Source: a virus (taxonomy: Duplodnaviria > Caudoviricetes). From it: 64,000 nucleotides of DNA. The notes beneath the pieces were generated by a model. The model was not told the origin of the DNA. It saw nothing but the letters and a program-made list of their open reading frames with translations, and made no database searches. Positions 8,187 to 52,935 of the stretch are shown here, in pieces. Position numbers and translations under genes: made by a program. The stretch is from the IMG/VR virus record IMGVR_UViG_3300028832_000112, positions 32,001 through 96,000 of that record. The stretch is one strand, 5' to 3'. Numbering within the stretch: the first letter of the stretch is position 1; every line of letters starts with the position of its first letter.

Positions 8187-8732
8187 ATGAATACAAATGT
8201 AGATTTTAACTTGTGGTTTAGCGATGAAAACTCCGAAGGCGCTCGTCGCAAGACCGTCCTAGATGAAGAACCAGCACCAAGGCTGCCGAGCATTCCGATG
8301 CATCCAAATAGCATCCTTGTTAGCAATAGGTTCACCGTGAAGTTCATCCCAGAAAAAACTTCGGCGTGGTCGATTGACAACCTTGGTAACTACATCAAGG
8401 ATATCGACTTCAAACCGAAGGAGATTCTGTTTTCGTTCTATAACACGAAGGACTTTCAGTTCTACCGAGAGGCGAATAAGTTTGGCTGTACTGGCATAAT
8501 TGTAGTTGACATCACGTCCTATGACGGCGTCACTCCAGTAGAAACGACTCGCTACCGTGTCCGTATATCCGAACCGCCTTGGCGTTCAACTTTGTCTGCA
8601 TCTGACGAGGAATCGTTCTCGCTCACTTATGTCAAGGGAACCATTATGGCCGTCGGAGAACCGGACGAAGTCGAATGGCATGACCATACCGATATATCGG
8701 TCGGTGCCGAACGGTTCGATTCTGCATGGTAA
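8187..8732 (+). CDS. hypothetical protein (weak resemblance to tail-tube gp19 fold)
   Basis: TATAAT just upstream; NRFTVKF motif. Confidence 0.6.
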   Translation: MNTNVDFNLWFSDENSEGARRKTVLDEEPAPRLPSIPMHPNSILVSNRFTVKFIPEKTSAWSIDNLGNYIKDIDFKPKEILFSFYNTKDFQFYREANKFGCTGIIVVDITSYDGVTPVETTRYRVRISEPPWRSTLSASDEESFSLTYVKGTIMAVGEPDEVEWHDHTDISVGAERFDSAW

Positions 8733-9299
8733 TCAGCGAGCCCTCAAGGCTTTCCAGTCACTTCTAGCCCTTTCCAAGGCCGAGTCGAATTCAGACTTGG
8801 CCTTTTCCATATAGGCGGCGATGTGCTTCGATAGAAGCGCCTTGGCAACTGTCTCGTAGTCTTCGGTGTAGTAGACGTTGCATCCGTCGTCGCAGAAGCC
8901 GTAGTCGTCCACTTGGCGCAAGGACACCTCGTCCACGTCCTCCGGCATGTCGTGGGTTATTCCGTTAACCAGATCCCAGTGTAGGCAGAGTATCGTGTTG
9001 CTGGGCGTAGTGTCGAAGTCGACCGAGTGCTCGTTGCCCTGCATGTCCTCGAAAATGACGCACTTTCCACGGTTCGTGTTCGTGACGAGCTTGACTATCA
9101 TCGAATCCGGGTGCTTTTCGGAATGCTGCCCAGCGGTAGCGTCCTCGTGGTAGATCAAGTTGTGGTGGATAGGGCACAACGGAATAGTCACCTTCTTGCC
9201 GAGGCGGTTTCCGGCCTCTCTGAGGTGGATATGGTGGTATTCTATAAGCGAACGCTTGTCTGTTTCGTAATTACAGCCTGGAAAGCAGCACTTGTACAT
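8733..9299 (-). CDS. HNH endonuclease-like protein
   Basis: CCFPGC...EYHHIH...PLCPIHHNLIYH. Confidence 0.75.
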   Translation of the reverse strand: MYKCCFPGCNYETDKRSLIEYHHIHLREAGNRLGKKVTIPLCPIHHNLIYHEDATAGQHSEKHPDSMIVKLVTNTNRGKCVIFEDMQGNEHSVDFDTTPSNTILCLHWDLVNGITHDMPEDVDEVSLRQVDDYGFCDDGCNVYYTEDYETVAKALLSKHIAAYMEKAKSEFDSALERARSDWKALRAR

Positions 9300-9309
9300 G
9301 GCACCAAAC

Positions 9310-9338
9310 TTGATTGTTTGAACGAAATATACTATATT
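9310..9338 (+). promoter_or_regulatory. early promoter; leaderless start at 9346
   Basis: TTGATT-N17-TATATT, ATG 7 nt downstream. Confidence 0.7.
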
Positions 9339-9345
9339 TCAAGTC

Positions 9346-10575
9346 ATGATTCAAATTCCGCACATGTCGCGCTTTTACGAGGCGGCCAATGCTGGTCGTC
9401 TCATGTCAGATACCAGTGACGACGGTCGCTTGGTATGCTTCAAGTACACCGAGGCAACTGCCGCCAATGCGGACTGGGACGAAGTCACGCTCAATGCGCG
9501 TGGCATCGTGTTCGAGACGGCGACTGGTAAGGTGGTCGCCCGTCCGTGGCACAAGTTCTTCAACTACCATGAGCTGTTCGGCGAACACGAACTGGCCAAG
9601 AAGACTCTGGAAGCGGTCAAGAAGGCTGGCCTTCCCCTTGGCATGGACGGAATTCCGCTGATGTTCGACAAGATCGACGGCTCGCTCGGCATCGTATTCT
9701 GGTATGGCGGCAAGTGGAACGTGACCACTGGCTGCAGCTTCCATTCTCCGCAAGTCCTCTGGGGCCGCATGTGGCTCAACGACCACATGAGGAAGCTCAA
9801 GTGTCCAATCGCCGACGACGCCTACAACAAGGTCATCAAGTCGCAGACGCACTTGTTCGAAATCGTCTGGCACCTTGACAAGCATCCTATTCGTTATCCG
9901 AAGGACGAAATGGTGTACTTGGGCGCGATCGAGACCAGCACTGGCGAAGAACTTCGCTCGGTATCCATTCGCAGCGCGTTCGCGGCAATGTTCGGCACCC
10001 ACATGCCGGAAAAGTTCGATTTCTCGTCCATTGAGAAGGTCGCGGAAATCTGCAAGACGCTTCCGGCTGACCACGAAGGCTTCGTCATCACGTGGCCTAG
10101 CGGATTCAAGCTGAAGATGAAGGGCGACGCATACTTGATGATGATGGGCTACTACGACAAGTGTACCGACAAGTATTTCTGGCGAGCCTACGACCCTAAT
10201 CTCAACATCTTCCATGCGAACCTCGACGCCGAACATAACTACGCCTATATCGACGACGAACCGCTGGTCATTCCAGAGGAACTGTTCGATATCCGTAACC
10301 GCATGGAGCTGTACGTGACTCGTTTCAGCGAGGCGCTGGACTACGTCATTTCCACTGGCGACTTCATCAAGATGACGCAGCATACGATGAAGGAACGCGC
10401 CTTGTACATCCAAGAGCATTTTGGCGAGGCGCAGCAAGCTCCGTTGCTCTCCTATGTTCGCGGAGACCGCATGGAGAATGTCAAGCGCATCGTCAACAAG
10501 ACGATGATGCGTCCGGAAAAGGGCGCGTCCGACAAGAATCCTTACATCGGCTATCACGAGGACAAAGATGACTGA
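9346..10575 (+). CDS. T4 RnlA/Rnl1-family RNA ligase
   Basis: ARGIVF, KFFNY, DKIDGSLG (KxDGS), LFEIV, EGFVI, KLKMK. Confidence 0.9.
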   Translation: MIQIPHMSRFYEAANAGRLMSDTSDDGRLVCFKYTEATAANADWDEVTLNARGIVFETATGKVVARPWHKFFNYHELFGEHELAKKTLEAVKKAGLPLGMDGIPLMFDKIDGSLGIVFWYGGKWNVTTGCSFHSPQVLWGRMWLNDHMRKLKCPIADDAYNKVIKSQTHLFEIVWHLDKHPIRYPKDEMVYLGAIETSTGEELRSVSIRSAFAAMFGTHMPEKFDFSSIEKVAEICKTLPADHEGFVITWPSGFKLKMKGDAYLMMMGYYDKCTDKYFWRAYDPNLNIFHANLDAEHNYAYIDDEPLVIPEELFDIRNRMELYVTRFSEALDYVISTGDFIKMTQHTMKERALYIQEHFGEAQQAPLLSYVRGDRMENVKRIVNKTMMRPEKGASDKNPYIGYHEDKDD

Positions 10576-11041: not shown

Positions 11042-11052
11042 TGAGGTAAAAA

Positions 11053-11373: not shown

Positions 11374-11375
11374 TC

Positions 11376-12839: not shown

Positions 12840-12878
12840 TTGCCGTTTTTGAGCGAATTTAGCGTTCCCCTTCTGAAA

Positions 12879-12912: not shown

Positions 12913-12940
12913 GCATAAGCTCCTAGTAAGGAGGCTGGAT

Positions 12941-13465
12941 ATGGCGGAACCGATTGTTCGACTTGTGGGCGATATAGACGAGGAAGTGGTATCAGAGGTC
13001 ATCGAGAAGCTGGGTAGGCTCTCACATAACGTGGGGAAGGTCATTCTGCTTATCGACAGCGACGGCGGTTCCATAGAAGAAGGCTTCCGATTGATCGACA
13101 CCATCCGGATTCTCCAAGACAAAGGGATAACCGTCCACACGGTTGGGTCGGGAAAACTTTATTCAATGTCATTTTTTGTCTTCTGCTCAGGAAAGGAACG
13201 GACTGCCTATCCGAGCACTCGATTCATGTCGCATTGTGCTCGATATGATGGGTTGGGTGAGAACGAGGCGTATACGGCGTCTGACTTGCGCGTTTTGCTC
13301 CAGGAAATGGAATACTACGACCGCATGATGAAGTCTGTGCTGATGGACGCCGGAGTAAGTTCTGCAGATGCAGACCAGCTATTAACGAAAAAGGACGTGT
13401 ATTTCAACGTCCCTCAAGCAATACATCTTGGAATTGTCCAGAAAGAAGAACACGATATCGTCTAG
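12941..13465 (+). CDS. ClpP-family protease
   Basis: IDSDGGSI, LYSMS (catalytic Ser), FMSH (His), AIHLGIV; AAGGAGG SD. Confidence 0.88.
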   Translation: MAEPIVRLVGDIDEEVVSEVIEKLGRLSHNVGKVILLIDSDGGSIEEGFRLIDTIRILQDKGITVHTVGSGKLYSMSFFVFCSGKERTAYPSTRFMSHCARYDGLGENEAYTASDLRVLLQEMEYYDRMMKSVLMDAGVSSADADQLLTKKDVYFNVPQAIHLGIVQKEEHDIV

Positions 13466-14208
13466 GACAGCTCCACCGACATCCAGTCGTCGAAGTCGAA
13501 GAATTCGAACGGCATTTTCTGGTCTTTCATGTGGAGCCAGACATCGGTCGTGATGACGTGCGAACCGTTGAGCGCGTCTTCCACTTTCTTGTTGAGAAGC
13601 GGAATGCGGTCATCTAGGCTGCCGTCTCTTGCCGACAGTCCGTGCATCTCGATCTTGGCTTCTGGACGGTACATACCCTTGTCGTACGCTTCTAGTAGTT
13701 TGTTCTGGATACGATTGAATCGTCCGGTCGGAATGTAATTGTCGAACACGGTTCCGTCGTAAGTTAGTTGCACGAGGCGCACCTTGTAACGGCGCTGCAG
13801 CTCGCGCATTATGTGCCTACGCATGTTCATGAAGAACTGGTCGCATCGGTCGGTGAGGATGAAGTGGTCTACTTCTTGTTTCACGTTGCCGAACGAGTCG
13901 ACGAAGGTCGAGTCGCAGCGAAGCGACTTGAGGTCGATATCCAGTTCCGTCGAGAACAAGTGCAGAGACTTCTTCGAGTTGTACGCGACGTGACCGATCT
14001 CGTGGATTTCTTGGTTGTCCGGCAAGACGATGCCAGTCTCCTCTTTCAGTTCACGCTTCGCCGCTTCGAGCGGAGTCTCGCCGTTCTCGATGTGGCCCTT
14101 CGGAATGTCGTAGGCGTAATTGTAGGTATAGGGACGTCCAGTCGGATGTCCTCCAAGCACCTTATGGGTGCTCTTGTCAATGATGATAAAACCAGCTGAT
14201 AGTTCCAT
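13462..14208 (-). CDS. NUDIX hydrolase with C-terminal extension
   Basis: Nudix box PKGHIENGETPLEAAKRELKEETG. Confidence 0.92.
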   Translation of the reverse strand: MELSAGFIIIDKSTHKVLGGHPTGRPYTYNYAYDIPKGHIENGETPLEAAKRELKEETGIVLPDNQEIHEIGHVAYNSKKSLHLFSTELDIDLKSLRCDSTFVDSFGNVKQEVDHFILTDRCDQFFMNMRRHIMRELQRRYKVRLVQLTYDGTVFDNYIPTGRFNRIQNKLLEAYDKGMYRPEAKIEMHGLSARDGSLDDRIPLLNKKVEDALNGSHVITTDVWLHMKDQKMPFEFFDFDDWMSVELS

Positions 14209-14223: not shown

Positions 14224-14427
14224 TTAATCGCAGTCCTTGTTGATTTCGTAGGGCTGCTGGGGTTCCGTTACGTCGATGCGCTTGACCGTGGTCGTCGGCG
14301 TCACCTTCTGGGCGTCCATGCCGAGGAGGACGATACGCTTCATTTCGTCATATTCCTCGTCCGTTGCGTTGTCCGGGACGAAGAACTTCTGGACTTGCTT
14401 GTATTCGCGAGTGACTTCGAACTGCAT
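14224..14427 (-). CDS. small hypothetical protein
   Basis: AGGAG SD; reverse promoter at 14468-14496. Confidence 0.65.
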   Translation of the reverse strand: MQFEVTREYKQVQKFFVPDNATDEEYDEMKRIVLLGMDAQKVTPTTTVKRIDVTEPQQPYEINKDCD

Positions 14428-14525
14428 AAGAATCTCCTTGTTTCTTACTTTTTTCTTATTTATATAAAATATAGCAATTTTCCGTGTTCTCGTCACCTAA
14501 ACTGATTGGAAAAGGAAGAAATTTT

Positions 14526-15341
14526 ATGGGTTTCAATATGCCTAAGACCAAAACAGTAGAACACGGCGAGATTACCTTAGAACAGCTCAATGAAATCAAG
14601 CGATGCGCAAGTGACTTGTCTTATTTCGCCAAGTACATAAAGCTCGAAAAGAATGGATATCCGATCAACTGGAGAGACTACCAGCTTCGCGAGTTCGACA
14701 TTCTCCAGAAGTACAACAACGTCATCCACAACTGGTGTAGGCAAGCTGGCAACCGATGGATCGAGGCCGCCTATGTGTTGTGGTACGTGACGTTCAACTC
14801 GTCTCGCTGCTGTGTGCTGTTGGATGTCAAGCATAGCATGGCCAAGGAACAGCTCGCGCTTATCAAGACGATGTACTTGAACTTGCCGTGGTGGTTGAAG
14901 AAGGAAGCCGATTTCCATAAGATATACGCCACGTTCGGTTCTGGCATAGACAAATGCACCATATTCGTTGAGGCGTACGGCCTTGGTGGATTCCGTGGTA
15001 AGACGGTTAACTTGTTCATGTGTCGGAATTTTGCATTTGTCAAGGAATCCATAGCAAACGATTTCGCGGCTTCCGTATTTCCGGTACACATGTCAGGTAA
15101 TCCGAAGAATCACCGCATGCTGATATCCTCTTGTCCAAACGGCAAGGGCAACTTGTTCCATCATCTGTGGAATAGTTGCATCCAGCTGCCCAACGTGATT
15201 CAGCCGGAATCGACGTCGTTTGTCGGTACGGAAGTGACGTACAGCAAGCAAGTCAAGCCGTACGTGAAAAAGGACATGTCGAGCTTGCTTCCGCGCCACA
15301 TCTACCTCGCCGAGTATGAATGTAAATTCGTGGACAGATAA
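14526..15341 (+). CDS. degenerate T4 gp17-like large terminase ATPase domain (no nuclease domain)
   Basis: YFAKYIK, RDYQ, CRQAGNR, RGKTVNLFMCRNFAFV, ISSCPNG.GNLFHHLW, ends at EYECKF. Confidence 0.75.
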   Translation: MGFNMPKTKTVEHGEITLEQLNEIKRCASDLSYFAKYIKLEKNGYPINWRDYQLREFDILQKYNNVIHNWCRQAGNRWIEAAYVLWYVTFNSSRCCVLLDVKHSMAKEQLALIKTMYLNLPWWLKKEADFHKIYATFGSGIDKCTIFVEAYGLGGFRGKTVNLFMCRNFAFVKESIANDFAASVFPVHMSGNPKNHRMLISSCPNGKGNLFHHLWNSCIQLPNVIQPESTSFVGTEVTYSKQVKPYVKKDMSSLLPRHIYLAEYECKFVDR

Positions 15342-15374
15342 TAAACTGTGGCTAAAGTCTCCTACGAGGAAACA

Positions 15375-15653
15375 ATGGCTAATATGAAATCTGTCGATGA
15401 AGTTATCGACGCCGAAATCGGCGGTTCTCCGATTTGCGAAGCCGTGAAGCAGATCGCTGGCACGTTGTTTGAGTCAATCGATTACAACAACGCAAGTGCC
15501 GTGTACAATGCTCTTGCAGAAGGCCAGTACTTTACTGACGCGGAACTTGAGCTTGTTACCAATGGCTGGGGCTTGAACACTGATACCTTGGACAGAATCT
15601 GCCAAGTCCGCTATGGCGGCGATGCAGACCAAGTTATTGAAGGACGTGTATGA
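15375..15653 (+). CDS. small acidic hypothetical protein
   Basis: GAGGA SD before ATG 15375; ATGA overlap with patatin. Confidence 0.7.
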   Translation: MANMKSVDEVIDAEIGGSPICEAVKQIAGTLFESIDYNNASAVYNALAEGQYFTDAELELVTNGWGLNTDTLDRICQVRYGGDADQVIEGRV

Positions 15654-16522
15654 GACCCTACCTAGCTATCAGTATCAACGGCGGCGGTGCCCTCGGCATC
15701 GGCCCTCTCGCGTTCATGGAACGTCTCGAAAGCGATGTCGGTAGAGGACTCAACGAAATCGGCGTTGCGTTTGCTGGAACTTCTACTGGCTCCATCATCG
15801 CTGGCGGTTTCGACGAAGGATATAACGCCCATGAATTACGTAAGCTGTACCGTGACAACTTGAAGAAGATTTTCACGAAGTATTCGTGGTACAAGCGCTT
15901 GCAGCCTTCTTGCCCGACCTACGACAACTCCTACTTGAAGGAACTCCTCAAGAAGAAGTTCAAGGGAAAGGTCAGCGACTGGAAGAAGCCCATTTACATT
16001 CCGACTACGCACACGAACGGTGAAAGCGTGGAGAAGGTTTGGGACTTGGGCGATACGAAGGTCGACAAGTGGTTCGCCATCTTGACAAGCACTGCGGCTC
16101 CTACATTCTTCGATGTTGTCGTTCAAGACGGCCAAAGTTTTTGTGACGGTGGTATGTGGGCGAACTCTCCGATTGCAGTCCTCAACGCTGGCTTGAAGCG
16201 TTCTGAGTACGTAGGCAAGCTCCGCATTCTTTCGTTCAACACTGGCATGGATACGCCGAACACGCTCAAGGGAAACCAGTCCCTCATCGGTTGGGCTACC
16301 TACCTCAAGGACGAATGGATCGCTCGCGCCGGAAAGAGCAACGACTACGAAGTCATCGCCGATCTCGGCGCAGAGAACGTGGCCATCGCCTCTCCGAAGC
16401 ACTCTTCAAAGATTGCGATGGACAAGACCGACGACGACACGCTCAATAAGATCGAGAAAATCTGGACGGACTACTACGATGCCAACCGTGAATATTTCAA
16501 GAAATTCGTGAAGTGCTACTAG
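15650..16522 (+). CDS. patatin-like phospholipase
   Basis: GGGALG, GTSTG nucleophile elbow, AAPTFF, DGG. Confidence 0.92.
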   Translation: MRPYLAISINGGGALGIGPLAFMERLESDVGRGLNEIGVAFAGTSTGSIIAGGFDEGYNAHELRKLYRDNLKKIFTKYSWYKRLQPSCPTYDNSYLKELLKKKFKGKVSDWKKPIYIPTTHTNGESVEKVWDLGDTKVDKWFAILTSTAAPTFFDVVVQDGQSFCDGGMWANSPIAVLNAGLKRSEYVGKLRILSFNTGMDTPNTLKGNQSLIGWATYLKDEWIARAGKSNDYEVIADLGAENVAIASPKHSSKIAMDKTDDDTLNKIEKIWTDYYDANREYFKKFVKCY

Positions 16523-16552
16523 GAACGGCTGGAAATGGATAAAAAAGGGGAT

Positions 16553-16581
16553 TTGCCAAGCAAATCCTCTTTTGCTATATT
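16553..16581 (+). promoter_or_regulatory. early promoter embedded in terminator hairpin
   Basis: TTGCCA-N17-TATATT; hairpin GGGGATTTG-ccaag-CAAATCCTC. Confidence 0.75.
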
Positions 16582-16607
16582 TAGGGCAACTTATCACTGG
16601 AATTCTC

Positions 16608-17372
16608 ATGGGAGAACTCAAACAAGCAGCTGGCATCAAGGTGGTACTCCAAGACCATTACGAAATGCCGAACCCACTTGAAACGACTTGCACCGTACTG
16701 TCATCGATCGGTATAAGCCCAGAATACTCACCGATGGCTGGCACGACGGAACTCTGGATCAACAGCGATGACGGTTCCTCGAAGTATGTTGGCTATCTTG
16801 ACTTTATCCACGATTTGCCGACTGGTCGACGTAATCTCTGGGGTCACACCGACGGCGGCAAGGCGATGCAACTCCTGACTGATAAGGACATCTTTGAATT
16901 CAAGGATATTCTCATGGCAGAAAACAACATCCAAGACAACGACGCACTCGAAATCATCGTACAGTACCAGCACGAAGACACCTACCGTCTCAAGGCTATC
17001 GAAAAGGGCAACTGGATCGACATGGCCGCCGACGAAGACGTGACTATCAAGGCTGGCGAACTCAAGCTCATCAACCTCGGAGTGGCTATGAAGCTTCCGG
17101 AAGGCTACGAAGGACACCTTGCCCCTCGTTCCTCCACGCTCAAGAAGTTCGGTGTGCTTCAGGCAAATTCAGTCGGCGTCGTCGACGATACATACTGTGG
17201 CCCTACAGACTGGTGGCGCTTCCCGGCATTCGCTACTCGCGATACCGAGATCAAGCGCGGCGAACGCATCTGCCAGTTCCGCATCATGGAAGTGCAGCCG
17301 AAGCTCCGCTTCACCGAAGGAAAGATGGTCGCCGAAGACCGAGGCGGATTCGGTTCCACCGGGACAAAGTAA
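16608..17372 (+). CDS. dut: trimeric dUTPase with ~100-aa N-terminal extension
   Basis: WIDM, PRSS, GVVDDTYCG, RICQFRI, RGGFGSTG. Confidence 0.9.
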   Translation: MGELKQAAGIKVVLQDHYEMPNPLETTCTVLSSIGISPEYSPMAGTTELWINSDDGSSKYVGYLDFIHDLPTGRRNLWGHTDGGKAMQLLTDKDIFEFKDILMAENNIQDNDALEIIVQYQHEDTYRLKAIEKGNWIDMAADEDVTIKAGELKLINLGVAMKLPEGYEGHLAPRSSTLKKFGVLQANSVGVVDDTYCGPTDWWRFPAFATRDTEIKRGERICQFRIMEVQPKLRFTEGKMVAEDRGGFGSTGTK

Positions 17373-17390
17373 TTGTTGTTAGTCCATACA

Positions 17391-17420
17391 AGATCGCCAG
17401 CGTCTGCTGGCGGTCTTTTT
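17391..17420 (+). terminator. intrinsic terminator
   Basis: AGATCGCCAGC-gtct-GCTGGCGGTCTTTTT. Confidence 0.8.
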
Positions 17421-17434
17421 CATAAACTAGGGTC

Positions 17435-17725
17435 ATGCAAGCATTTCTCCACTCGATAGCTCCTTTCCTTGGCGGTTTCGGCTCGTTTCTCTTTGCGATC
17501 GTCAACGTTCCTATCATCGTAAAAATTTATATGCAGAAGTCCACAGAAGGGACTTCTTTGCTGTTTGTGCTGATGTCGTTCTTTGCGAACATCTGCTGCG
17601 GCATGTTCGTGCTGGACAACAACCTCACTACGGGCGTATGGCAGATTCCGCTTTATTGCAACTACGGATTCGCGTTCTGCTGTTGCTGCTGGATTCTGTA
17701 CTTGTTCCATAAGTTCAAGAAATAG
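17435..17725 (+). CDS. PQ-loop/SemiSWEET-like 3-TM transporter
   Basis: three hydrophobic helices, P.IVKIY..KSTEGTS, PLYCNY. Confidence 0.7.
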   Translation: MQAFLHSIAPFLGGFGSFLFAIVNVPIIVKIYMQKSTEGTSLLFVLMSFFANICCGMFVLDNNLTTGVWQIPLYCNYGFAFCCCCWILYLFHKFKK

Positions 17726-21823: not shown

Positions 21824-22494
21824 GCATGACATCGTGGCGTGGAAGAATCCACCGTGTCGCTGACACTGTGGCTACCATACGCGCACACGCGAAAAATGCG
21901 CACATCGTCCTTACTCTTGCCGAGGACGAGTTCGAAGGCGTCGGACTGCCTGAGCTGGGCGTGGACGAAGTCATCTGGTGCCCAAGGAACATAGGCCCAT
22001 TCAAGAAGGTGCTGTACACGATGCGGCGCTATCCCGGCTGTCCAGTGCTGTCGGTCGACGACGACATTAGTTACGGACAAGTTGTCGATGCAATGTATGG
22101 CATGCACGAACGATACCCAGATGATGTTGTCAGCAACTTCCCCAATGTCAAGACTGGCGGTATCAGTCTGCCAAACGGATACGCTACTCTGTATCCGCCG
22201 AACTGTCTGGACGGCGCACTGGAGCTTCTGACGGACAGAATTGTGGCGACCAAGAACGACGATGCGTTCTATGGGCTTATTTTAATGGAAAAAGGATACA
22301 AATTCCGTTACGCAATGCGCCACGATATTGCTATATTTGACAAAGACAACGACGGTTTGCACTTGCTGATGAAGTACCACGGCAACGAAGACATCAAGGT
22401 CATCGTATCCGAGCTGTACAAGTCAGGCAAGTTCAACCCGACCGACCCAACATTCATCAGCAAATACCCAAAGGAGAAATATGTCCTACAATAA
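21808..22494 (+). CDS. GT-A fold glycosyltransferase-like protein
   Basis: VSMTSW..RI, GPFKK, SVDDDISY (DxD), DDAFY. Confidence 0.7.
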   Translation: MGRLVSMTSWRGRIHRVADTVATIRAHAKNAHIVLTLAEDEFEGVGLPELGVDEVIWCPRNIGPFKKVLYTMRRYPGCPVLSVDDDISYGQVVDAMYGMHERYPDDVVSNFPNVKTGGISLPNGYATLYPPNCLDGALELLTDRIVATKNDDAFYGLILMEKGYKFRYAMRHDIAIFDKDNDGLHLLMKYHGNEDIKVIVSELYKSGKFNPTDPTFISKYPKEKYVLQ

Positions 22495-23320
22495 TTTCAA
22501 CATCGCCGTGTTCGAAAGCACGATGAAGAAAATCAATGACACGCCGTCCATCTACAAGGCGGTGGAAGCCGCTACGGCAGCCCAGAAGTATTACTTCGGC
22601 GACGCACCAGCACCCACGGTCGACCGTTTCGAAAAGCCGTGCGAACTCCGCTTGACGCGCAACCGCACCGTCGACGCTGGCCGCAAGGTGCTGAAGGACG
22701 ATCCGACCGCCAAGGTCGCCATTCTCAACTTCGCAAGCGCCACTCGACCGGGCGGCGGAGTCACCTCTGGTTCCTCTGCACAAGAAGAGTGCATCTGCCG
22801 CGTGTCTGGCCTCTACAAGTGCCTCACTACTCCGGAAGCCGTCAAGCGCTTCTACGACTACCACAAGACGAGCGTGGGCCCTCTGCACAACGATGACATC
22901 ATCTACACGCCGAACGTCCCCGTCTTGAAGACTGACGACTACGACTTCCTCGACGAGCCAGTCTACCTCGACGTGATCACTTGTGCAGCTCCTAACCTTC
23001 GCGAGAAGAACGTCTCCCAGTACAACCAAGAACGTGAACCCGCGCCGGACATTTCCGACGACGAACTCTACAAGCTCCACGTGAGCCGCGCTCGCCAGAT
23101 CCTCAACGTCGCTGCCGCCAACGGTGCGGACGTCGTTATCCTCGGTGCATTCGGCTGCGGTGCATTCCGCAACAAGCCGGAAGTCGTCGCCAAGGCTTAC
23201 GCCGACGTCGTGCCTGACTACCTCAAGCAGTTCAAGGCTATCGAGTTCGCCATCTTCTGTCCGAAGGGCAAGCCGACCGACAACTACGACGCCTTTAAGG
23301 CTGTCTTTGGGAGAAAGTAA
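22481..23320 (+). CDS. TIGR02452/DUF2263 bacterial PARG-like macrodomain hydrolase
   Basis: LNFASATRPGGG...AQEECICR, IYTPNV, ITCAAPN, LGAFGCGAFRN. Confidence 0.93.
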   Translation: MSYNNFNIAVFESTMKKINDTPSIYKAVEAATAAQKYYFGDAPAPTVDRFEKPCELRLTRNRTVDAGRKVLKDDPTAKVAILNFASATRPGGGVTSGSSAQEECICRVSGLYKCLTTPEAVKRFYDYHKTSVGPLHNDDIIYTPNVPVLKTDDYDFLDEPVYLDVITCAAPNLREKNVSQYNQEREPAPDISDDELYKLHVSRARQILNVAAANGADVVILGAFGCGAFRNKPEVVAKAYADVVPDYLKQFKAIEFAIFCPKGKPTDNYDAFKAVFGRK

Positions 23321-27719: not shown

Positions 27720-27782
27720 AATATAGCAATATAACGAAATTATGGCAAACGCATTGCCAACATTTTGCAATATTGCTATATT
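27720..27782. promoter_or_regulatory. back-to-back divergent early promoters
   Basis: TTGCCA-N17-TATATT on both strands. Confidence 0.8.
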
Positions 27783-29192: not shown

Positions 29193-29263
29193 CTATGGTG
29201 GACGATTTCTTTAATCGTCTATGGAACCAAGTTGCCAACGCAACCATAAATTGCTATATTTAA
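27947..29263 (+). CDS. tnpB: RNA-guided endonuclease TnpB
   Basis: GCARYAYNW, GIDIGVK, IEDLNVKGM, FPSSKKCSGCG..CEECG, DRDTNAAINI. Confidence 0.95.
   Translation: MITTAQKIMLIVDSKTASALNRACGCARYAYNWARDAWFAKKAAGQKVVTCAELRKEFNAQKSDWMYESPKGSMDQAIKNFVLAKKRHYENPELFGFPKRKKYKSNRSFYIENDKAKLMDEYHIKLPKIPNPVRLAESVRPECLSGKINNFVVSKGSNDRWYISISYTYDDTNSLYGTGENGLVGIDIGVKTLMQLSTSECVSNEHINKRHYKRLKRYQRMMSRRTYNSVHYKDIKKTFNKKNTYIKNYRKDLIHKATTEIVKHNMVVAIEDLNVKGMMSNHKLASAISDCGFGMIRRFLEYKSAKYGTLLLKVGRFFPSSKKCSGCGHVKENLSLSEREFICEECGLAIDRDTNAAINILAEALFNELNKRFNTDIARRKFTPADLVALASSLSGTGEPTEVDAHRLLTRDGRTAMVDDFFNRLWNQVANATINCYI
29076..29212 (+). ncRNA. putative TnpB omegaRNA scaffold plus guide
   Basis: structured region after the RuvC-III codons, terminal hairpin CGTC..TTACCA-gaga-TGGTAG-GACG. 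Confidence 0.5.
29232..29260 (+). promoter_or_regulatory. early promoter
   Basis: TTGCCA-N17-TATATT. Confidence 0.75.
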
Positions 29264-32351: not shown

Positions 32352-32414
32352 TCCCTTACAAAAACGATAAACTAGAGGCAAATTGTAAACAATATGAAAC
32401 AAAGAGGACACAGC

Positions 32415-35400: not shown

Positions 35401-37235
35401 AGACCAAGGACACAGTGACCGTCATCGTTACGGACGGCGAGTTCTCTGACACGGCCACTGTCGTTATCAAGGTTATCGACGTTCCAGAAAAGACCGAGAT
35501 TACCGAGGTAGATGACCAGCCGAAGCAAGACACCATCAGGACGAACGATCCAGACCACAAGATCGACTACAAGATCTGTGAGGACAAGAAGTGCATCGTT
35601 GACAGCATCCCGGTGACGACCCACAAGGACACCGTGGTCAAGGTATGCAACGAGAAGAAGACTTCTTGCGACCAAGTGGTTATCTTGTTCAGTGACGCTC
35701 CTCCGGTGGTCATCCTCAAGAATACCGAGAATACCACGGCCTTGATCGACTACATCACCATCGAGGAAAAGAAGGACGACCACATCTATGTGAACAAGAA
35801 GGACAACGCTCTCCAAGTGACCGTCAAGGACACCGTCCACAAGACGGAAAAGCACTTCGATATCGACGTCAAGCTTGATACCGTGTCCGTGAAGACGTCC
35901 CACGTCAAGGACTACAGCTATCTGGTAGACGAGAGCAATGCCACCGTTACGCCCATAGGCGGCGGTCTGGCGGAAGTCTCCGAGACTATCAAGGTGGATG
36001 GCGTCAAGGTGACTATCACGAAGGTCGTCAATGCCAAGACGATGGATCCAGTGGACACGACGCAGACGGTGTCTTACAAGACCACCGAAGGCGGCAAGGA
36101 AGTCACGATTACCTACACTACGGACAACCTCACTGGTCAGCGCATTTCCGACTACCATGTTTCGTACAACATTGATTCTTGCACCACGGTCTCCTATGAC
36201 CTCGATGACAAGAAGAAGGTCGTGAAGAACAAGGAAGGAAACGTCGCTTATACGGTCAAGTACGACTACACCGACGAGTATGGCAACAAGGCTTCTGCCG
36301 AAGTCGAAATCGTATTCGACGACATTCCGCCGAAGGTCGAGATCCGTACGCCGAACTCGATGGAACGCTTCAACACGAACGCCATCAAGGTCGAGTGGAC
36401 TGTCAACGGAGTAACCCAGGATACGCTTAATCTGCAGCGTCTTGAGAAGGGCTTGAACTACGTAATCCGCCGTTACGTGGACAAGGCTGGAAACGTGGCC
36501 GCCGATACTGTAGCGGTATTCATGGCCGAGGCGAAGGATATCGACATTTCCATCATCAACCCGGTCACCAAGGTTGACCAAGACAAGGTTGACGAATACT
36601 ATGCCGACCACAAGTACGACGCCAAGAATCCGTACAGCATCCAGTTCACCGATCCGGACTCCAGTAAGTTGCCTGAGACCATCGGCATCGGCTTCAAGAT
36701 CGACATCGTGCTTCCTAGCGTTTCTGCAACTGGCGGACTCGCTACGCTTGACGATATCGTGAAGAATGGCCAGATCCCAGTCGACGACAAGGGCAACATC
36801 GTGGGCGCTTCCACGAAGGGAATCCCGGTCGACCAGTATGTGGAAGAACACTGCACCGACGAGTTCAAGAAGGATTACAAGAAGCACGGTCTCGACATTC
36901 CTCTGTATGACGTGACCTACAACCTTCACCTCTGGGTGTTTACCACGCAAGCCAACTACGTGAACGACTTCCGCGTCGAATACAAGCTCAATGACCAAGC
37001 CAAGGTGACGGACGCCGGAACTGTCCAGATGGTTCTTGACTGGCTGACCGACAAGGAAGGCAACGTGAAGGCCAAGAACGGTCACGCCATGGGCACTGGA
37101 GCCTATATCACCAAGCTTGAGTCCAAGTCCATCGCCAAGCACCGCTGCGACTACAAGGAGCAGAAGAAGGGCGACAAGACGGTCAAGAAGGAAGACGACA
37201 TGACTACGTTCGGCTACAAGAGGCCGACAAAGTAA
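32415..37235 (+). CDS. secreted cadherin-repeat surface protein, Fibrobacter-type
   Basis: signal peptide MKYWLTFILALAMSVFA; six DYE(T/K)...D(I/V)NE.P cadherin repeats; C-terminal GTGAYI...FGYKRP. Confidence 0.85.
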   Translation: MKYWLTFILALAMSVFAADLRPFHFDKVADDHEAQQEEFEYMLKYKLFGRDYLTMGRRVIIPDKSGWNGSANDITSAEQLSIGGPTLAGGSISVGDGCKFTTGPIRATSMTAGNDNGAHYFAGTVCLANTAVSNAVQTGINRAQGTLTSTCPEVPAAPTNLSIPTVPWPTTGYQDDIIIDQNYGVAYIDVPDGTDQYDLYYDKIHLNRESKNAPGKEGATLYIRMQDGGRLTRIFVHDLQIGNHTSIRVVYRTANGDSILPQDEYRGNVLIYSDGDISFVNTDNTPIQGSFLSTAEISLQCNLDFSGQLLANKLYIGDDFKGDHFHFVIYDPDTLDIDPTLNKDGGLRENDSTVVLPIQLSDTATVDVFFKFCFDLKDGVTVDDFNMVTDFPICGTDSPKTLVIPTGKKVPTELIKVNVKKDTLTEPNDYLVLKISIESGAVLPNNKTDGELRVKIIDADVAKKLSFDTTAVYTEKENYTGIVDNIKIVNYSDDVKFYLDSAFTGRYSIDETTGVITLLTPVDYETTPIDTIKVTVKDTGDVAITGYIPISVIDINEKPILNDTTLVFSENTPIPTIVGVLKATDEDTNPNYSKNEYSIMEGSSHFVIDSKTGRITTSKVFDYETDTTEFVLKVLVADIGQPTVLYDTAFVTIRVKDVNEVPTVKNQTFHIPENVIDTVGKVSGVDPEGNKLTYVITNDVPFKIDSNGVITNTKPFDYETRKDYLVKVDVSDGTYIIPIEVKVIVDDVDEPVHAHDTTLTVDERQTGPIGKVTGEDEDGKPVKFSGSDTLHYNIHPTTGVVEVVKPFDYETTKVDTLLVFVEDVNGNIDTATVVVKVNNVNDPPKLQPNDSLTVPENCKNCIVGIITATDPDKDHIKYEVAEKGFTIDSSGVLKLTDPVDYEKTPTVKVTVIASDPSGAADTMTYTVKVTDINEPVHVKDTTCSVAENVTGPTGCKVTAWDEDKTTPKFTVTDTTRFGIDSTGEIIVKQPYDYEKKTKDTVTVIVTDGEFSDTATVVIKVIDVPEKTEITEVDDQPKQDTIRTNDPDHKIDYKICEDKKCIVDSIPVTTHKDTVVKVCNEKKTSCDQVVILFSDAPPVVILKNTENTTALIDYITIEEKKDDHIYVNKKDNALQVTVKDTVHKTEKHFDIDVKLDTVSVKTSHVKDYSYLVDESNATVTPIGGGLAEVSETIKVDGVKVTITKVVNAKTMDPVDTTQTVSYKTTEGGKEVTITYTTDNLTGQRISDYHVSYNIDSCTTVSYDLDDKKKVVKNKEGNVAYTVKYDYTDEYGNKASAEVEIVFDDIPPKVEIRTPNSMERFNTNAIKVEWTVNGVTQDTLNLQRLEKGLNYVIRRYVDKAGNVAADTVAVFMAEAKDIDISIINPVTKVDQDKVDEYYADHKYDAKNPYSIQFTDPDSSKLPETIGIGFKIDIVLPSVSATGGLATLDDIVKNGQIPVDDKGNIVGASTKGIPVDQYVEEHCTDEFKKDYKKHGLDIPLYDVTYNLHLWVFTTQANYVNDFRVEYKLNDQAKVTDAGTVQMVLDWLTDKEGNVKAKNGHAMGTGAYITKLESKSIAKHRCDYKEQKKGDKTVKKEDDMTTFGYKRPTK

Positions 37236-48061: not shown

Positions 48062-48064
48062 GTT

Positions 48065-49185: not shown

Positions 49186-49188
49186 CCC

Positions 49189-49464
49189 ATGATGCTCTAT
49201 TACCTTGTCAACAGCGTGGAGACCAAGAACCACAAGTATTTCCGCAACGGAAGCGATATGGGCGGCGAACGATATGACGGAACCAACCGTCTTCTCGACG
49301 CTCGCTTCTTTACTTCGGAGGACGAAGCCAAGTCCTATATCAAGACGGCCAACAGCTGGTGGACGAAGTACGACTTCCACGTATGCACCATCACGTCGGA
49401 CGAGCTGATGGACTTGATGGTGGCACAGAAACTGAAATCATTTATCTTATCGGACATGTGCTAG
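49189..49464 (+). CDS. small hypothetical protein
   Basis: GGAGG SD. Confidence 0.65.
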   Translation: MMLYYLVNSVETKNHKYFRNGSDMGGERYDGTNRLLDARFFTSEDEAKSYIKTANSWWTKYDFHVCTITSDELMDLMVAQKLKSFILSDMC

Positions 49465-49467
49465 ACT

Positions 49468-49740
49468 ATGATCATTCGTTTGTTTGACTACGAACTGCGT
49501 ATAAACGTGTCTCTCGTTAATACGAAGGCCAAGCTGTATTACATCCGCGCCACTTGGACGGACGGCACTGTCGGCTATTACGGCATCGGGCAGAACGTCA
49601 AGGGCGACATCTGGTATCCGGTATGCAACAAGCAGTATGCCATGTGCTATTACCGCAAGGAAGCCAAGAAGCAGCTGAAGATGCTGCGCTATCTGTTCCG
49701 CAAGGATACTTCGATGTCGCTTGCCTTAGAGGAAGTATGA
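49468..49740 (+). CDS. small hypothetical protein
   Basis: operon context. Confidence 0.6.
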   Translation: MIIRLFDYELRINVSLVNTKAKLYYIRATWTDGTVGYYGIGQNVKGDIWYPVCNKQYAMCYYRKEAKKQLKMLRYLFRKDTSMSLALEEV

Positions 49741-50147
49741 AGTACGAATTTATCTTCAAGGTGTTCAAGGACTACTACTGTTCCAAGTACGTCCATTCGC
49801 ATCTTGTAGGCTACTTCAGGAGCGAAGCCTCTGCCGATCGAGAAATTTCCTATCTGAAAAAGCACGAGTTCGAACTCGGTCACCGGGTCGAGTATCGTAT
49901 TGAAAAGGAATCGGCTACTCTGTATCCGAACATGGTGGCCGACTGGGAGGCGGAAGACCGCGAGGCAGAACTAGAAGAACAACGTGCATTCGCTCCTATT
50001 CCGCTTCCGAGAGTACGCAAGCGGTTTCCGTCCTTGCTGGCACAGTCGGCAATGGAATTCAATATCGAGGAGTTCCATCAAAAAACGGCGAACAACATGA
50101 TGTCGTTCGTCCGTTCAATGCAAAAGCATCGCCGTCACCGCCGCTAG
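49737..50147 (+). CDS. hypothetical protein, paralog of 52378-52935
   Basis: shared GYFRS, ADWE.E.RE and RFP.L motifs. Confidence 0.7.
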   Translation: MKYEFIFKVFKDYYCSKYVHSHLVGYFRSEASADREISYLKKHEFELGHRVEYRIEKESATLYPNMVADWEAEDREAELEEQRAFAPIPLPRVRKRFPSLLAQSAMEFNIEEFHQKTANNMMSFVRSMQKHRRHRR

Positions 50148-50761
50148 CGAAGTATCTCCCGTTTTGTCGTGCTTTCATGTACGAACTTGACCGCTTCCAT
50201 GATGTAGCGAGTATAGACGGGAACTTTATCATTTAGTATCTTCACGACATCATCTTCTTCGAGGACGTCGGCCTTCAGTTCGCTCATTTTTGTCAACGAG
50301 GCCAGCTTGACCTTGTGGTTCTCGCTGCAATTCGCCACGTTTGGCGCAAGCAATCCGGACAGCACGACGGACGGCCCAGAAATGTAGAGCAGCGCGTTGT
50401 AAGGGTCGATCTCGACCGCTTTCACGTAATACGCCGTGCGGACGATTCCTTCATTCACCGCAATCCAGTGCTGCAGAAGATCTCCGCTGATCGCTTGAAG
50501 GATCGGCGGTACACTTTGCTCCAACAGATTCTTGATGTCTTCTGGTTCGACGATCGATTCTTTCTGTTCTTCGCGTAGTTCCTTCATCAGCGTACACATC
50601 GCCGCCGACGGCGACGGAAATGCCGACAGCCGTTCAAGCAGTTCGTTCTTTTCGCAACTGAACGTGCATCGTACATTGTCCTTGAACTGACGGTAAAGTC
50701 GTTCGAAAGCGTCCAGCGCGACGTTGACGTCGTATGACATTAGGTTGAGTGGCGTTTCCAT
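50144..50761 (-). CDS. hypothetical protein
   Basis: operon context. Confidence 0.7.
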   Translation of the reverse strand: METPLNLMSYDVNVALDAFERLYRQFKDNVRCTFSCEKNELLERLSAFPSPSAAMCTLMKELREEQKESIVEPEDIKNLLEQSVPPILQAISGDLLQHWIAVNEGIVRTAYYVKAVEIDPYNALLYISGPSVVLSGLLAPNVANCSENHKVKLASLTKMSELKADVLEEDDVVKILNDKVPVYTRYIMEAVKFVHESTTKREILR

Positions 50762-50764
50762 TTA

Positions 50765-51622
50765 CTATAGTTCCTTGATATATTCGAGTAGTTCCTGGAC
50801 TTCCTTGTTCTTCTTTGCGTCCTTGCCCAAGAAAGTCATTGTGTGCAATGCCATATTCTTGGCGAATGTTTCAGACGTGCCGTACCAGCTGTTAAGGTTG
50901 TCGGAAATCTCGTCGAATGCCCTACGACCGTCGCTCGCCCACCTATCGTCTGCGACGAGCGGCTTCCATACCTTGTAGTACATTTCCATCTTTTGATTGC
51001 TAGAATCACTACGCCCGATGAGAAAACCGTCCTTGAACAAGTTTCCGTTGTATACATCTTTATAGTCGGATCCGCCCCATAAAGGAATAACGATGGAGGA
51101 ATGAGGCTTTCCCTTGCTGTCATAGGCAAGTCCGTTCACTTCTGCGAAGTGTACAGAAGCGGGTTTCAGTGAAATGCCTTCATCGTCGTAGTCGACTTCC
51201 TTCAGTCCGCCGTGGTCGAAGTTGAACTTCAGTGAGAAGTTTTCTCCCCAGCCGTCGGAAATCTGTCCGTCCAAGTCTTCTTTGAGACCATCAAGGTAGG
51301 GACGGATCGTTTTCTTGTTCATCAAGTCACTGGGCTTTCCGCAGCATAGCTGTTCGTCGATCGTCGCCATGAAGCAGACATATAGCTTTCCGTCCCTAAC
51401 GGTCACGTGCTGCGTGATGTCGATGACGTGAGCTCGCAAGTCCGGCAGCAAGTGGTGGAGACATTTTGCAAGGGACAGCTCCGTGTCGAATTCGAACACG
51501 GCCAGCTTTGTCTCGATTATGTCGATTAGCTTGACAGTCTGCTCGGCGGTAAGGTCTACCGGATATCCGTCCTCGTCTTCGATGTAAAACGGTGCTAGGA
51601 ATCTGATTTGGGTGTGGAACAT
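50765..51622 (-). CDS. DGQISDGWGE-motif protein (paralog of 30102-30869)
   Basis: shared motif; GAGG SD. Confidence 0.75.
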   Translation of the reverse strand: MFHTQIRFLAPFYIEDEDGYPVDLTAEQTVKLIDIIETKLAVFEFDTELSLAKCLHHLLPDLRAHVIDITQHVTVRDGKLYVCFMATIDEQLCCGKPSDLMNKKTIRPYLDGLKEDLDGQISDGWGENFSLKFNFDHGGLKEVDYDDEGISLKPASVHFAEVNGLAYDSKGKPHSSIVIPLWGGSDYKDVYNGNLFKDGFLIGRSDSSNQKMEMYYKVWKPLVADDRWASDGRRAFDEISDNLNSWYGTSETFAKNMALHTMTFLGKDAKKNKEVQELLEYIKEL

Positions 51623-51639
51623 ATTGGCCTCGTTATTGC

Positions 51640-52044
51640 TTACTCGTTGAGTTCATACGGGTTTTCGTAGCTTTCGTCACCGTGGTACAAGCGCAGCCAG
51701 CGAAGGGTTTCTTCCATGTCGACGTCAGGATAGTACTTCTTCCACGTATCGTATGCGTCCAGCGGCTTGTCTGGCTTCGTGCGTCTGGCGCATTCCCAGT
51801 CGAGGGCGGCTTCGAACTTGTTCTTGATGTCGCCGTTGCGGTAGTGGTGGCCAGACCATGCTAGGTGGAGCTTCTTGGTCAGCTTGAGACCGAGGATCGG
51901 ATAGAGGATTATCTTGTCCATGTCGTGAAACGGAAAGTAGAATCCCTTGTACAAGGCAAGCTGGTTCAGTGCCTTGCGATGGGCCCACGTGTACTTGACA
52001 TGGTCGATTCGTGCTTTGAAGATATTATTGATTGTCTTGAACAT
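51640..52044 (-). CDS. HD-domain (DUF5662-like) protein, leaderless
   Basis: H...FHDMDK...HHY...DWECAR; ATG 7 nt after reverse TATATT. Confidence 0.7.
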   Translation of the reverse strand: MFKTINNIFKARIDHVKYTWAHRKALNQLALYKGFYFPFHDMDKIILYPILGLKLTKKLHLAWSGHHYRNGDIKNKFEAALDWECARRTKPDKPLDAYDTWKKYYPDVDMEETLRWLRLYHGDESYENPYELNE

Positions 52045-52051
52045 GTCACCA

Positions 52052-52095
52052 AATATAGCAAATAAATTGACTTGTGTAATTGTTTTTGCTATATT
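52052..52095. promoter_or_regulatory. interlocked divergent early promoters
   Basis: TTGACT-N17-TATATT (+); reverse TGCTATATT with weak -35. Confidence 0.8.
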
Positions 52096-52102
52096 TGCTT
52101 GC

Positions 52103-52378
52103 ATGAATAAGAACTTCTGGATATTCTTTCTACGATACTTATGGGGTTGCTGCATCTCCTTTCTGTCGATGGCGTTCGTGATTTTATACGGAATTGCGTG
52201 GCTGGCTACGGTGCTGATGATTGCGGTCGCCGTCGTGCCCGATCTGATCGGCCAAGGACTTCGCTGGCTAATCTGCAGCATATACAGATTCTTTGGGCCG
52301 ACTTGCCGCGAAGGCGAGGACTTGAGGAATCCGTTGTCTCGATTCAGTAAATGGTTTCTGGAAAAGGTTAAGCTCTGA
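52103..52378 (+). CDS. small membrane protein (leaderless)
   Basis: long hydrophobic stretch. Confidence 0.65.
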   Translation: MNKNFWIFFLRYLWGCCISFLSMAFVILYGIAWLATVLMIAVAVVPDLIGQGLRWLICSIYRFFGPTCREGEDLRNPLSRFSKWFLEKVKL

Positions 52379-52935
52379 TGGGTGTAAAAATTATAGAATA
52401 CAAGGGAGCCAAGCTCCACTACAAGGAACGCTGCTACGAGCTTTACCGTATCTATCCTAGCGGCAAGGAATGGTTCTGCGGCTACTTCCGTAGTCAAGAA
52501 GACTACGAGATCGAGCTGGCTCGCTGCAAGAACGAGGAAGCTGGCCCAGATGAATATGTCATCAAGGAAGTTCCTTCCGCTGGTATTCCTGTAGCCAAGA
52601 TACACGACGTCGTCGAGGAGCGCAAGCGCCGCAACAAGGAAGCACGACAACGAGCCATCGAAGCCAGAAAGTGGGCCGAAGAGCGCAAGAAACTCATAGC
52701 AGACTGGGAACGCGAGGAGCGCGAATGGCGCGAGAAGCATCCCGGCCAAGCAAGACGGCTGATCGACCGTAGGTTTCCTCCGCTGTTCGATTGTCATGCG
52801 CTTCCGCCAGTTTGCACAACCCCAGACGGCATCTACAAGGCGCTTCGGTATCTTTATCCGGACTCCGTCAAGAAGTTCGTTAAGTCGACCGACTTTGCCA
52901 AGACGATCAAACCTCGTAGGAGGAAGAAACGATGA
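52378..52935 (+). CDS. hypothetical protein with capsid-N-terminal-like C-terminal motif
   Basis: LIDRRFPPL...TPDGIYKALRYLY. Confidence 0.7.
   Translation: MGVKIIEYKGAKLHYKERCYELYRIYPSGKEWFCGYFRSQEDYEIELARCKNEEAGPDEYVIKEVPSAGIPVAKIHDVVEERKRRNKEARQRAIEARKWAEERKKLIADWEREEREWREKHPGQARRLIDRRFPPLFDCHALPPVCTTPDGIYKALRYLYPDSVKKFVKSTDFAKTIKPRRRKKR

Follow-up and report, generated by a model that had tools for sequence, protein, structure and literature searches.

Intact and conserved look-alikes of terminase, capsid and tail tube proteins outside the structural modules of a very large phage

Introduction

The IMG/VR virus record IMGVR_UViG_3300028832_000112 is a contig of 105,680 bp, and the stretch of DNA analysed here, referred to as the window, comprises the 64,000 nucleotides at its bases 32001-96000. 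Between positions 8187 and 52935, the window carries four genes whose products resemble virion morphogenesis proteins. One encodes an ATPase domain related to the terminase large subunit (TerL), one a protein with a predicted tail-tube fold, and two encode small proteins, the first of which carries a segment of the capsid protein and the second a weaker likeness to it. The look-alikes of the packaging enzyme, the capsid and the tail tube are real, intact and conserved. A sequence-only reading of the window had taken these genes for a decoy set, that is, non-functional mimics kept by the phage to occupy or mis-trigger host immune sensors, with decaying duplicates or assembly modulators as alternatives. 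A decoy function is a minority hypothesis; more likely, the proteins are independent derivatives of structural proteins that act by binding. Their main features, with positions in the window and lengths in amino acids (aa), are as follows.

52378..52935, plus strand: 185-aa protein; start codon in overlap (TGATG) with the stop codon of the plus-strand open reading frame (ORF) upstream
52747..52875, plus strand: capsid-like segment, residues 124-166 of the 185-aa protein, equivalent to residues 65-108 of the capsid protein of the lineage and colinear with about residues 98-131 (Gol region) of T4 gp23
14526..15341, plus strand: paralogue of the TerL ATPase domain, 271 aa; ATG start with an AAGGAAG ribosome-binding site, in a frame open from GTG 14484
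8187..8732, plus strand: 181-aa protein; about 45 N-terminal residues are disordered, and the core (46-160) has a predicted tail-tube/Hcp fold
49737..50147, plus strand: 136-aa protein whose N-terminal domain is of the GYFRS type and whose tail is basic; start codon in overlap with the stop codon of ORF 49468-49740
49998..50051, plus strand: residues 88-105 of the 136-aa protein, with a weak likeness to the first half of the capsid N-arm motif

A capsid segment in a small protein

The 185-aa protein consists of a beta-beta-beta-alpha-beta domain with a GYFRS motif (residues 1-66), a long charged helix (78-120), a segment resembling the capsid N-arm and Gol region, and a basic tail. Its AlphaFold model comprises the N-terminal domain and the helix, with the capsid-like part predicted at low confidence. 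The sequence-only reading had noted a Gol-region-like motif in this protein, and comparisons at several levels bear this out. Against T4 gp23, the best local BLASTP match aligns residues 128-160 with gp23 residues 98-131 (pairwise E 0.065; 12 of 35 residues in common). The resemblance to the lineage's own capsid protein is much stronger, with 16/36 identities by BLASTP (E 1e-3). Moreover, among the 1398 six-frame ORFs of the contig, the capsid protein has its top match in the 52378 ORF (phmmer E 2e-5 for capsid residues 1-130; BLASTP 35 bits). When the 11-member family of the 185-aa protein is aligned by hhalign with 64 capsid proteins, the two profiles match over 43 columns with a probability of 95.8 and an E-value of 6.7e-9. 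The family profile was also searched against 17 whole related records, two of them complete (419 and 422 kb), on which all distribution counts given here are based. The capsid gene was matched at the Gol-equivalent position in 17/17 records (E 1e-5 to 8e-8 per genome), and the sole other match was a true orthologue of the 185-aa protein in one record.

The pattern of conservation follows this segment. It is almost invariant across the 64 capsid proteins, which range from 65 to 100% identity, and the invariant columns of the 185-aa family are the residues that it has in common with the capsid segment. At the DNA level, the segment and its copy are 51% identical, use the same codon at 9 of 19 identical residues and give no significant blastn match. 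With this nucleotide identity and codon usage, the capsid-like motif appears to be old and held by selection at the protein level rather than recently copied. The 10 homologues of the 185-aa protein (61-91% identity) all fall within this phage clade, and the ratio of nonsynonymous to synonymous substitution rates (dN/dS) of the gene is 0.20. In a shorter orthologue, the protein ends directly after the motif with a basic tail.

Outside the segment, the protein has little in common with a capsid protein. The model is a small beta domain with a long helix rather than an HK97 fold, and only the segment of 43 columns aligns with the capsid. Neither the 185-aa nor the 136-aa protein has a Pfam match, including to Gp23 (PF07068). 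Foldseek and VIA searches with the 185-aa model returned generic long helices only, and a language-model search with its N-terminal domain gave scores below 0.8. An apparent Tyr/Phe co-variation between the capsid motif and its copy was dropped from consideration, since close relatives vary at this position and their capsid proteins do not.

The roles of the corresponding stretch in T4 indicate what such a segment could bind. The 29-residue Gol region of T4 binds domains II-III of EF-Tu and lets Lit cleave EF-Tu; when bound to EF-Tu-GDP, the Gol peptide of T4 inhibits the GTPase (PMC3014915). As Gol is more conserved than any other part of gp23, EF-Tu binding was proposed to be a property of every T4-type capsid protein (PMC3014915). 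In the unexpanded head, gp23 residues before L106 are disordered and probably lie on the scaffold; the same residues later form the N-arm and N-fist, and Met98 touches the portal whisker (PMC9546572). Given these roles in T4, a protein displaying the Gol-equivalent stretch could meet EF-Tu, assembly partners or a sensor that reads the motif. An EF-Tu-directed take-over, in which the 185-aa protein would bind EF-Tu by its Gol-like segment and modulate translation independently of defence, has a slim chance of being correct. The colinearity with the EF-Tu-binding region of T4 (PMC3014915) speaks for such a role; however, it would concern a single protein of the four, and the likeness to gp23 extends to no more than 12 of 35 residues.

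The gene is translationally coupled to an upstream ORF by the overlap of stop and start codons, and a plus-strand ORF occupies the same place in a relative (L032).

51947..52378, plus strand: 143-aa ORF upstream of the 185-aa gene; no Pfam or PADLOC match

A minus-strand frame of 385 aa (51640-52797) overlaps both the 143-aa and the 185-aa genes. It is probably for the most part a shadow ORF, because the plus-strand genes have conserved and selected orthologues.

A terminase ATPase domain without its catalytic residues

The homology of the 14526 protein to terminases is clear. It aligns residue by residue with the ATPase domain of T4 gp17 (PDB 2o0h/3cpe; E 3e-11) and matches terminase PHROGs (E 1e-17), and a tblastn search with it finds terminase genes in 2089 phage records at about 30% identity. 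With the lineage's real TerL, it shares 32% identity (E 3e-35). In contrast to these enzymes, its catalytic motifs are replaced. The Walker A motif reads GNR where gp17 has GKT and the real TerL has GKS, so that the catalytic lysine is lost. Walker B reads RN (RH in one relative) at the position of the DE found in both gp17 and the real TerL. The changes also affect part of the coupling motif. Retained features include the adenine-binding DYQ motif, the SRQ/CRQ arginine preceding the P-loop and EYEC at the end of the domain. The protein terminates in EYECKF, 5 residues past EYEC, with no RNase H-like nuclease domain, whereas the real TerL reads EYECEF at the equivalent point and continues into its nuclease domain. 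The sequence-only reading had called this product a dead, nuclease-less terminase ATPase. The homology, the replaced Walker motifs and the missing nuclease domain all agree with that description, and the loss of the motifs suggests a TerL ATPase domain that would no longer be able to hydrolyse ATP.

These changes are shared by relatives. The motif substitutions are retained in homologues of 74-85% identity, and the gene also lies between the NUDIX and patatin genes in contigs of 436 and 468 kb. Its pairwise dN/dS values (0.08-0.16) are as low as those of the patatin and RNA ligase genes. An alternative in which an intron or intein divides the gene and the 14526 ORF is one of the halves was discarded, since it is the catalytic residues that have been replaced.

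Related megaphages encode additional TerL-like paralogues, 259-262 and 480-484 aa in length. All lack the P-loop lysine (GST, GFT and GYT at this site) with Walker B intact, and the short ones (259-262 aa) end at the same alignment column as the 14526 protein. The lysine has thus been lost in three short or mid-length paralogues besides the 14526 family. In a maximum-likelihood tree, the 14526 family is grouped, at a support of 87/90, with the megaphage TerLs; its stem has a length of 2.0 changes per site. A single origin of all short terminase paralogues was not retained as an explanation, as the tree scatters the other paralogues on long branches, a placement flagged as unreliable. A pattern search of IMG/VR for a dead terminase found 0. 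A separate protein of 298 aa (P0008) is a distant (32%) N-terminal fragment of TerL with Walker A and B intact and a tail of about 30 residues starting CVHGDT. This tail resembles the short N-terminal piece of an atypically split intein, and its Cys aligns with the EYEC column that ends the dead copy.

Genuine terminase and capsid genes of the lineage

Two rumen metagenome-assembled genomes (MAGs), labelled Prevotella and Fibrobacter, contain DNA with 89-98% identity to the window's contig, and these relatives encode the genuine proteins. In one MAG, the TerL frame has intact motifs (GKS, DE) and spans at least 521 aa before the contig ends. In the other, the same TerL is split by a LAGLIDADG intein and measures 997 aa in total. 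The intein-bearing gene lies on a 37-kb contig which, about 21 kb away, has 94-96% identity to bases 14394-17555 of the window's contig. Because TerL is physically linked to DNA of such identity, an intact TerL lies just past the left end of the contig in a near-identical phage.

L022:2539-5532 (rumen MAG contig G002:C21), minus strand: intein-bearing TerL; TerL frames of 996 and 1015 aa also occur in L122 and L126

The apparent intein of some relatives is an in-frame LAGLIDADG insert of about 440 aa within the coupling motif (after ...IITS, resuming TPQG...). It seems to end in Gln rather than Asn, and a further relative (L011) has the same TerL without the insert.

Each of the two MAGs encodes one T4-type capsid protein (PF07068, 214 bits), and the gene lies within a portal-capsid-protease module on contigs of up to 348 kb. 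A 348-kb IMG/VR record has TerL near one end and a capsid protein identical to that of both MAGs. This record and the 105-kb contig, about 453 kb together, would be complementary fragments of one phage type. For the tail tube, a search with PF06841 (Phage_T4_gp19) gave no match in the contig, and a 256-aa ORF between a 723-aa ORF and the portal gene, considered as the real tail tube, was unsupported by a PHROG scan or BLASTP. The expectation that intact parent genes exist elsewhere in the genome therefore holds for TerL and the capsid; the gene of the tail tube was not found by sequence.

A predicted tail-tube fold without a sequence family

The 181-aa protein is assigned by its predicted structure. 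AlphaFold models the core (residues 46-160; pLDDT, the per-residue confidence of the model, about 88) as a beta-sandwich with a long hairpin and a flanking helix. In VIA comparisons, this core scores Z 8.8 against a chain of the T4 baseplate-tube complex (5iv5_BG) and 8.4 against both the P1 and the phiCD508 tube, over alignments of 97-113 residues with root mean square deviations of 3.0-3.5. Tube-type proteins (tube, Hcp, hub or tube-initiator) make up 49 of the top 50 rows, and Foldseek finds tube proteins at a probability of about 1.0 with modest E-values. A BLASTP comparison with T4 gp19 was not significant, and Pfam, PHROGs, NCBIfam and PADLOC contain no match for the 8187, 49737 or 52378 proteins. 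The possible tail-tube-like ORF of the sequence-only reading is accordingly backed by the modelled fold, without a sequence match.

The gene lies downstream of a terminator-like hairpin and a TATAAT-like box in its own transcription unit. Its neighbours encode an AAA ATPase and an RNA ligase, with no sheath or baseplate genes beside it, and its dN/dS is 0.27-0.30. The homologues are few, and the core domain also occurs inside proteins of 400-500 aa without Pfam domains. In three of these (P0054, P0056 and P0057), the domain lies in the middle, and the N-termini resemble, by eye only, ribbon-helix-helix DNA-binding domains. One such protein (L140:6001-7506) lies among small ORFs and homing endonucleases of a different rumen phage contig. 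The 8187 protein is best viewed as accessory rather than a core part of the tail, as its family is confined to one of the 17 related records and is missing from both complete genomes.

These observations bear on whether the proteins are themselves parts of the virion. The capsid-like segment could anchor the small basic proteins to the capsid lattice or the scaffold, so that they would be packaged inside the head or decorate it; the 8187 protein could be a minor tail or baseplate part, and the pseudo-ATPase could be an accessory of the motor. Structural genes are often scattered in very large phages, basic C-terminal tails suit contact with DNA, and the top match of the tube fold is a chain of the T4 baseplate-tube complex. 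In addition, the equivalent gp23 stretch of T4 faces the scaffold, then makes inter-capsomer contacts and touches the portal whisker (PMC9546572). However, the two complete related genomes lack the tube-fold family, and one of them also lacks the capsid-like family. The neighbouring genes are metabolic or repair genes, and the relatives of the tube-fold domain in the 400-500-aa proteins have small accessory ORFs and homing endonucleases around them rather than tail modules. A role of the proteins as virion components is consequently improbable.

A possible paralogue of the capsid-segment protein

The 136-aa protein was proposed, together with the 185-aa protein, as one of two small proteins with Gol-like motifs. 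This holds for the 185-aa protein; the case of the 136-aa protein is weak and covers the first half of the motif only. It matches the capsid at E 1e-4 by BLASTP and at P 1e-3 over 18 columns by hhalign, and its family profile matched no capsid gene in the 17 related records. The GYFRS-type N-terminus is common to both families (hhalign P 6.5e-4), and each of the two proteins is the second-best match of the other in the contig, at E 0.2-0.7. From these comparisons, the 136-aa protein is possibly a distant paralogue of the 185-aa protein. It has 18 homologues, and the dN/dS of its gene is 0.26.

49189..49740, plus strand: pair of ORFs of 91 and 90 aa preceding the 136-aa gene, the second coupled to its start; no Pfam match

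The 91-aa/90-aa/136-aa arrangement is also called in relatives. In DNA contigs from one sequencing run of bovine gut, 50136/50147 is followed immediately by 52022/52045. Given these joins, some relatives lack the two minus-strand genes between the GYFRS-type genes (about 50140-52040).

Selection, distribution and co-inheritance

All four genes are maintained by selection. Their dN/dS values of 0.08-0.30 are comparable to those of neighbouring genes, so none evolves neutrally. The frames are intact in every relative examined, and synteny is kept over contigs whose copies differ at 8-25% of residues. These values exclude decay, which had been offered as the alternative to decoys. The view that the genes are neutral remnants of duplicated morphogenesis genes could draw on the lost catalytic motifs and nuclease domain and on the pseudo-ATPase stem of 2.0 changes per site. 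Against it stand not only the low dN/dS, intact frames and kept synteny; the replaced motif residues are themselves conserved, and the capsid-like motif is kept despite synonymous divergence. Neutral decay is thus scarcely credible. On homology or fold, the assignments stand for the 14526, 52378 and 8187 proteins, and that of the 49737 protein remains weak.

The four genes do not form a set. They lie 6-38 kb apart in separate transcription units, and the closest relatives carry all four. Across the 17 related records, however, the families do not co-occur as a set. The 185-aa family is present in one record, the 136-aa family in two others, and the tube-fold family in one, again a different record. 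TerL pseudo-ATPases occur in four. Both complete genomes are without the tube-fold family, and one of them is also without the capsid-like family. Because the families are distributed differently among relatives, the genes are not one co-inherited system, and the pattern fits separate gain and retention. The decoy set is thus not borne out as a single set.

The phage and the surroundings of the genes

The best explanation for the source is a T4-related phage of the bovine rumen with a genome of about 450 kb, of which the window would be a non-structural arm of repair, nucleotide-metabolism and accessory genes. The contig has a CheckV completeness of 26%. Related sequence occurs on contigs of 436,655 and 468,552 bp, and terminal repeats are present in the IMG/VR records of two relatives, 419 and 422 kb long; from these, the genome size is put at about 420-470 kb. 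The sequencing runs that contain the sequence are bovine gut metagenomes, and a megablast search of the window against phage records gave 0 matches.

No head, tail or packaging module was found in the window, and the contig has no match to Terminase_6N, Terminase_6C or Gp23. The statement that the look-alikes lie outside any structural module is in keeping with their neighbours, which include ligases, ClpP, NUDIX, patatin, dUTPase, PARG and TnpB. Genes that could be identified in the window encode an NAD-dependent DNA ligase, an RlaP-type nucleotidyltransferase, an AAA ATPase, a T4-type RNA ligase 1 and a guanylate kinase. Others encode ClpP, a NUDIX protein, patatin, dUTPase, a PARG-like protein, a DUF1848 protein, an AAA_28 protein and a radical-SAM protein. 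Five of these genes make up a cluster of repair or counter-defence type, which suggests that this arm is devoted to conflict with the host.

544-2664: NAD-dependent DNA ligase
3140-4315: RlaP nucleotidyltransferase
9346-10575: T4 Rnl1-type RNA ligase
13462-14208: NUDIX hydrolase
22481-23320: PARG-like protein
27857-29263 and 59134-60423: two TnpB genes (OrfB_IS605 and Cas12f-like TNB)
32394-37235, plus strand: 1613-aa protein with at least 4 cadherin repeats, the sole candidate in the window for a surface or virion-decoration protein

Relatives have two TnpB copies directly beside the dead terminase gene, inserted in place of the ClpP region (L003:6068-7420, 8665-9705). A promoter-like repeat, consisting of TTGCCA, a spacer of 15-19 bases and GCTATATT, occurs at 16553, 27754 and 29232 on the plus strand and at 27748 on the minus strand. 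One tnpB gene is bracketed by two copies of this TTGCCA...GCTATATT motif.

Proposed binding without catalysis, and the decoy reading

The proteins may be explained as the products of three gene families, independent of one another, that descend from virion morphogenesis proteins or have their shape. Each protein would act by binding rather than catalysis, showing one interaction surface of its parent, and would thereby occupy or titrate a partner of that parent. Candidate partners of the capsid-like protein include EF-Tu, the scaffold, the portal, the neighbouring capsid subunits that contact the N-arm and a host sensor that reads the motif. Those of the pseudo-ATPase include the small terminase, the portal and the TerL ring. 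Titration by binding alone is the most likely of the explanations considered, because a parental interaction surface kept without the parental activity is the common denominator of the proteins. We give an even chance to this reading, in which independent, binding-only derivatives each titrate a partner of the parent, whether viral or host.

Several points weigh against it. In RNA data, small, low-depth contigs of a single library (possibly with DNA) cover parts of both small genes, which shows neither transcription nor timing. The capsid likeness of the 136-aa protein may be due to chance. The match to the tube fold is moderate (Z below 9; Foldseek E above 1e-3 against the PDB), some tube-fold proteins are true minor structural parts, and the genuine tail tube gene was not identified by sequence, so the 8187 protein may yet have a structural role. 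Finally, neighbours of repair and counter-defence types (Rnl1, NAD ligase, PARG and NUDIX) favour conflict with the host over a purely internal regulatory role.

This last point leads to the decoy reading, according to which mimics of terminase, capsid and tube are made early and occupy or blunt sensors of the Avs/STAND, Lit, CapRel and DSR2 types as antagonists. All three parents are documented immune triggers: Avs families read TerL, the capsid and the tail tube, and Lit and CapRel read short capsid motifs (bioRxiv 10.64898/2026.01.04.697583). The copied capsid stretch is the Gol-equivalent one, the genes lie in an accessory arm rich in genes of repair and counter-defence type, and their distribution is patchy, as is often the case with anti-defence genes. 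Of 151 genomes from the bacterial family to which the phage-carrying, Fibrobacter-labelled MAG belongs, 3 encode Lit-family peptidases, so a Lit-type sensor is at least present in the candidate host group.

Nevertheless, a faithful mimic would be expected to activate a sensor rather than silence it. Avs3 contacts the catalytic pockets of TerL, and such residues are lost in the 14526 protein, which counts against its service as a decoy. The families do not co-occur in relatives. Moreover, a catalogue of 268 anti-defence proteins contains no trigger-mimic of a structural protein and hence no precedent, and the PADLOC models have no match for the proteins. A 2026 survey of Avs does not mention such decoys (bioRxiv 10.64898/2026.01.04.697583). 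A decoy set of this kind is therefore decidedly unlikely. In a narrower form, at least the capsid-segment protein and the pseudo-ATPase would be trigger mimics that bind Lit/CapRel-type or Avs-type sensors without activating them and so blunt the sensing of virion proteins. This form is unlikely; if true, it would be an undescribed anti-defence principle, possibly used repeatedly by very large phages.

Whatever their mode of action, these proteins are of general interest. Many bacterial defences detect essential virion proteins, which a phage cannot easily mutate. Selected look-alikes of these proteins offer a concrete test of viral trigger mimicry against bacterial immunity, the alternative being a regulatory role in assembly or host translation. 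Among them, the capsid-segment protein offers the clearest entry point: it has a 43-residue match to the most conserved part of the capsid, is small and easily expressed, and has an obvious deletion control.

Comparison with known systems

DSAD1, the phage inhibitor of DSR2, counteracts a sensor that is triggered by the tail tube protein (PMC11087589). Its likeness to the proteins described here is conceptual only: no evidence was found that DSAD1 resembles the tube protein, nor, without a test aimed at it, was a relation to any protein of the window.

The core of the 8187 protein superposes on T4 gp19, the gp48/gp54 initiators, the P1 tube and Hcp of the type VI secretion system, with Z of 7-8.8 over about 100-113 residues. 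Unlike tail tube and Hcp proteins, it has a disordered N-terminus and no sequence family, and it is absent from the complete related genomes.

The 14526 protein is homologous to TerLs of the T4 gp17 type along the whole ATPase domain and keeps DYQ, the SRQ/CRQ arginine and EYEC. In contrast to these enzymes, it lacks the Walker A lysine, both Walker B acidic residues and the nuclease domain, and its gene lies away from packaging and head genes, on a long, fast-evolving stem.

The 185-aa protein resembles the Gol region of T4 gp23 in that its residues 124-166 are colinear with gp23 residues of about 98-131. Unlike in T4, the Gol-like segment is carried by a small protein without the HK97 fold, where it is 44% identical to the lineage's own capsid protein and about 34% identical to that of T4.

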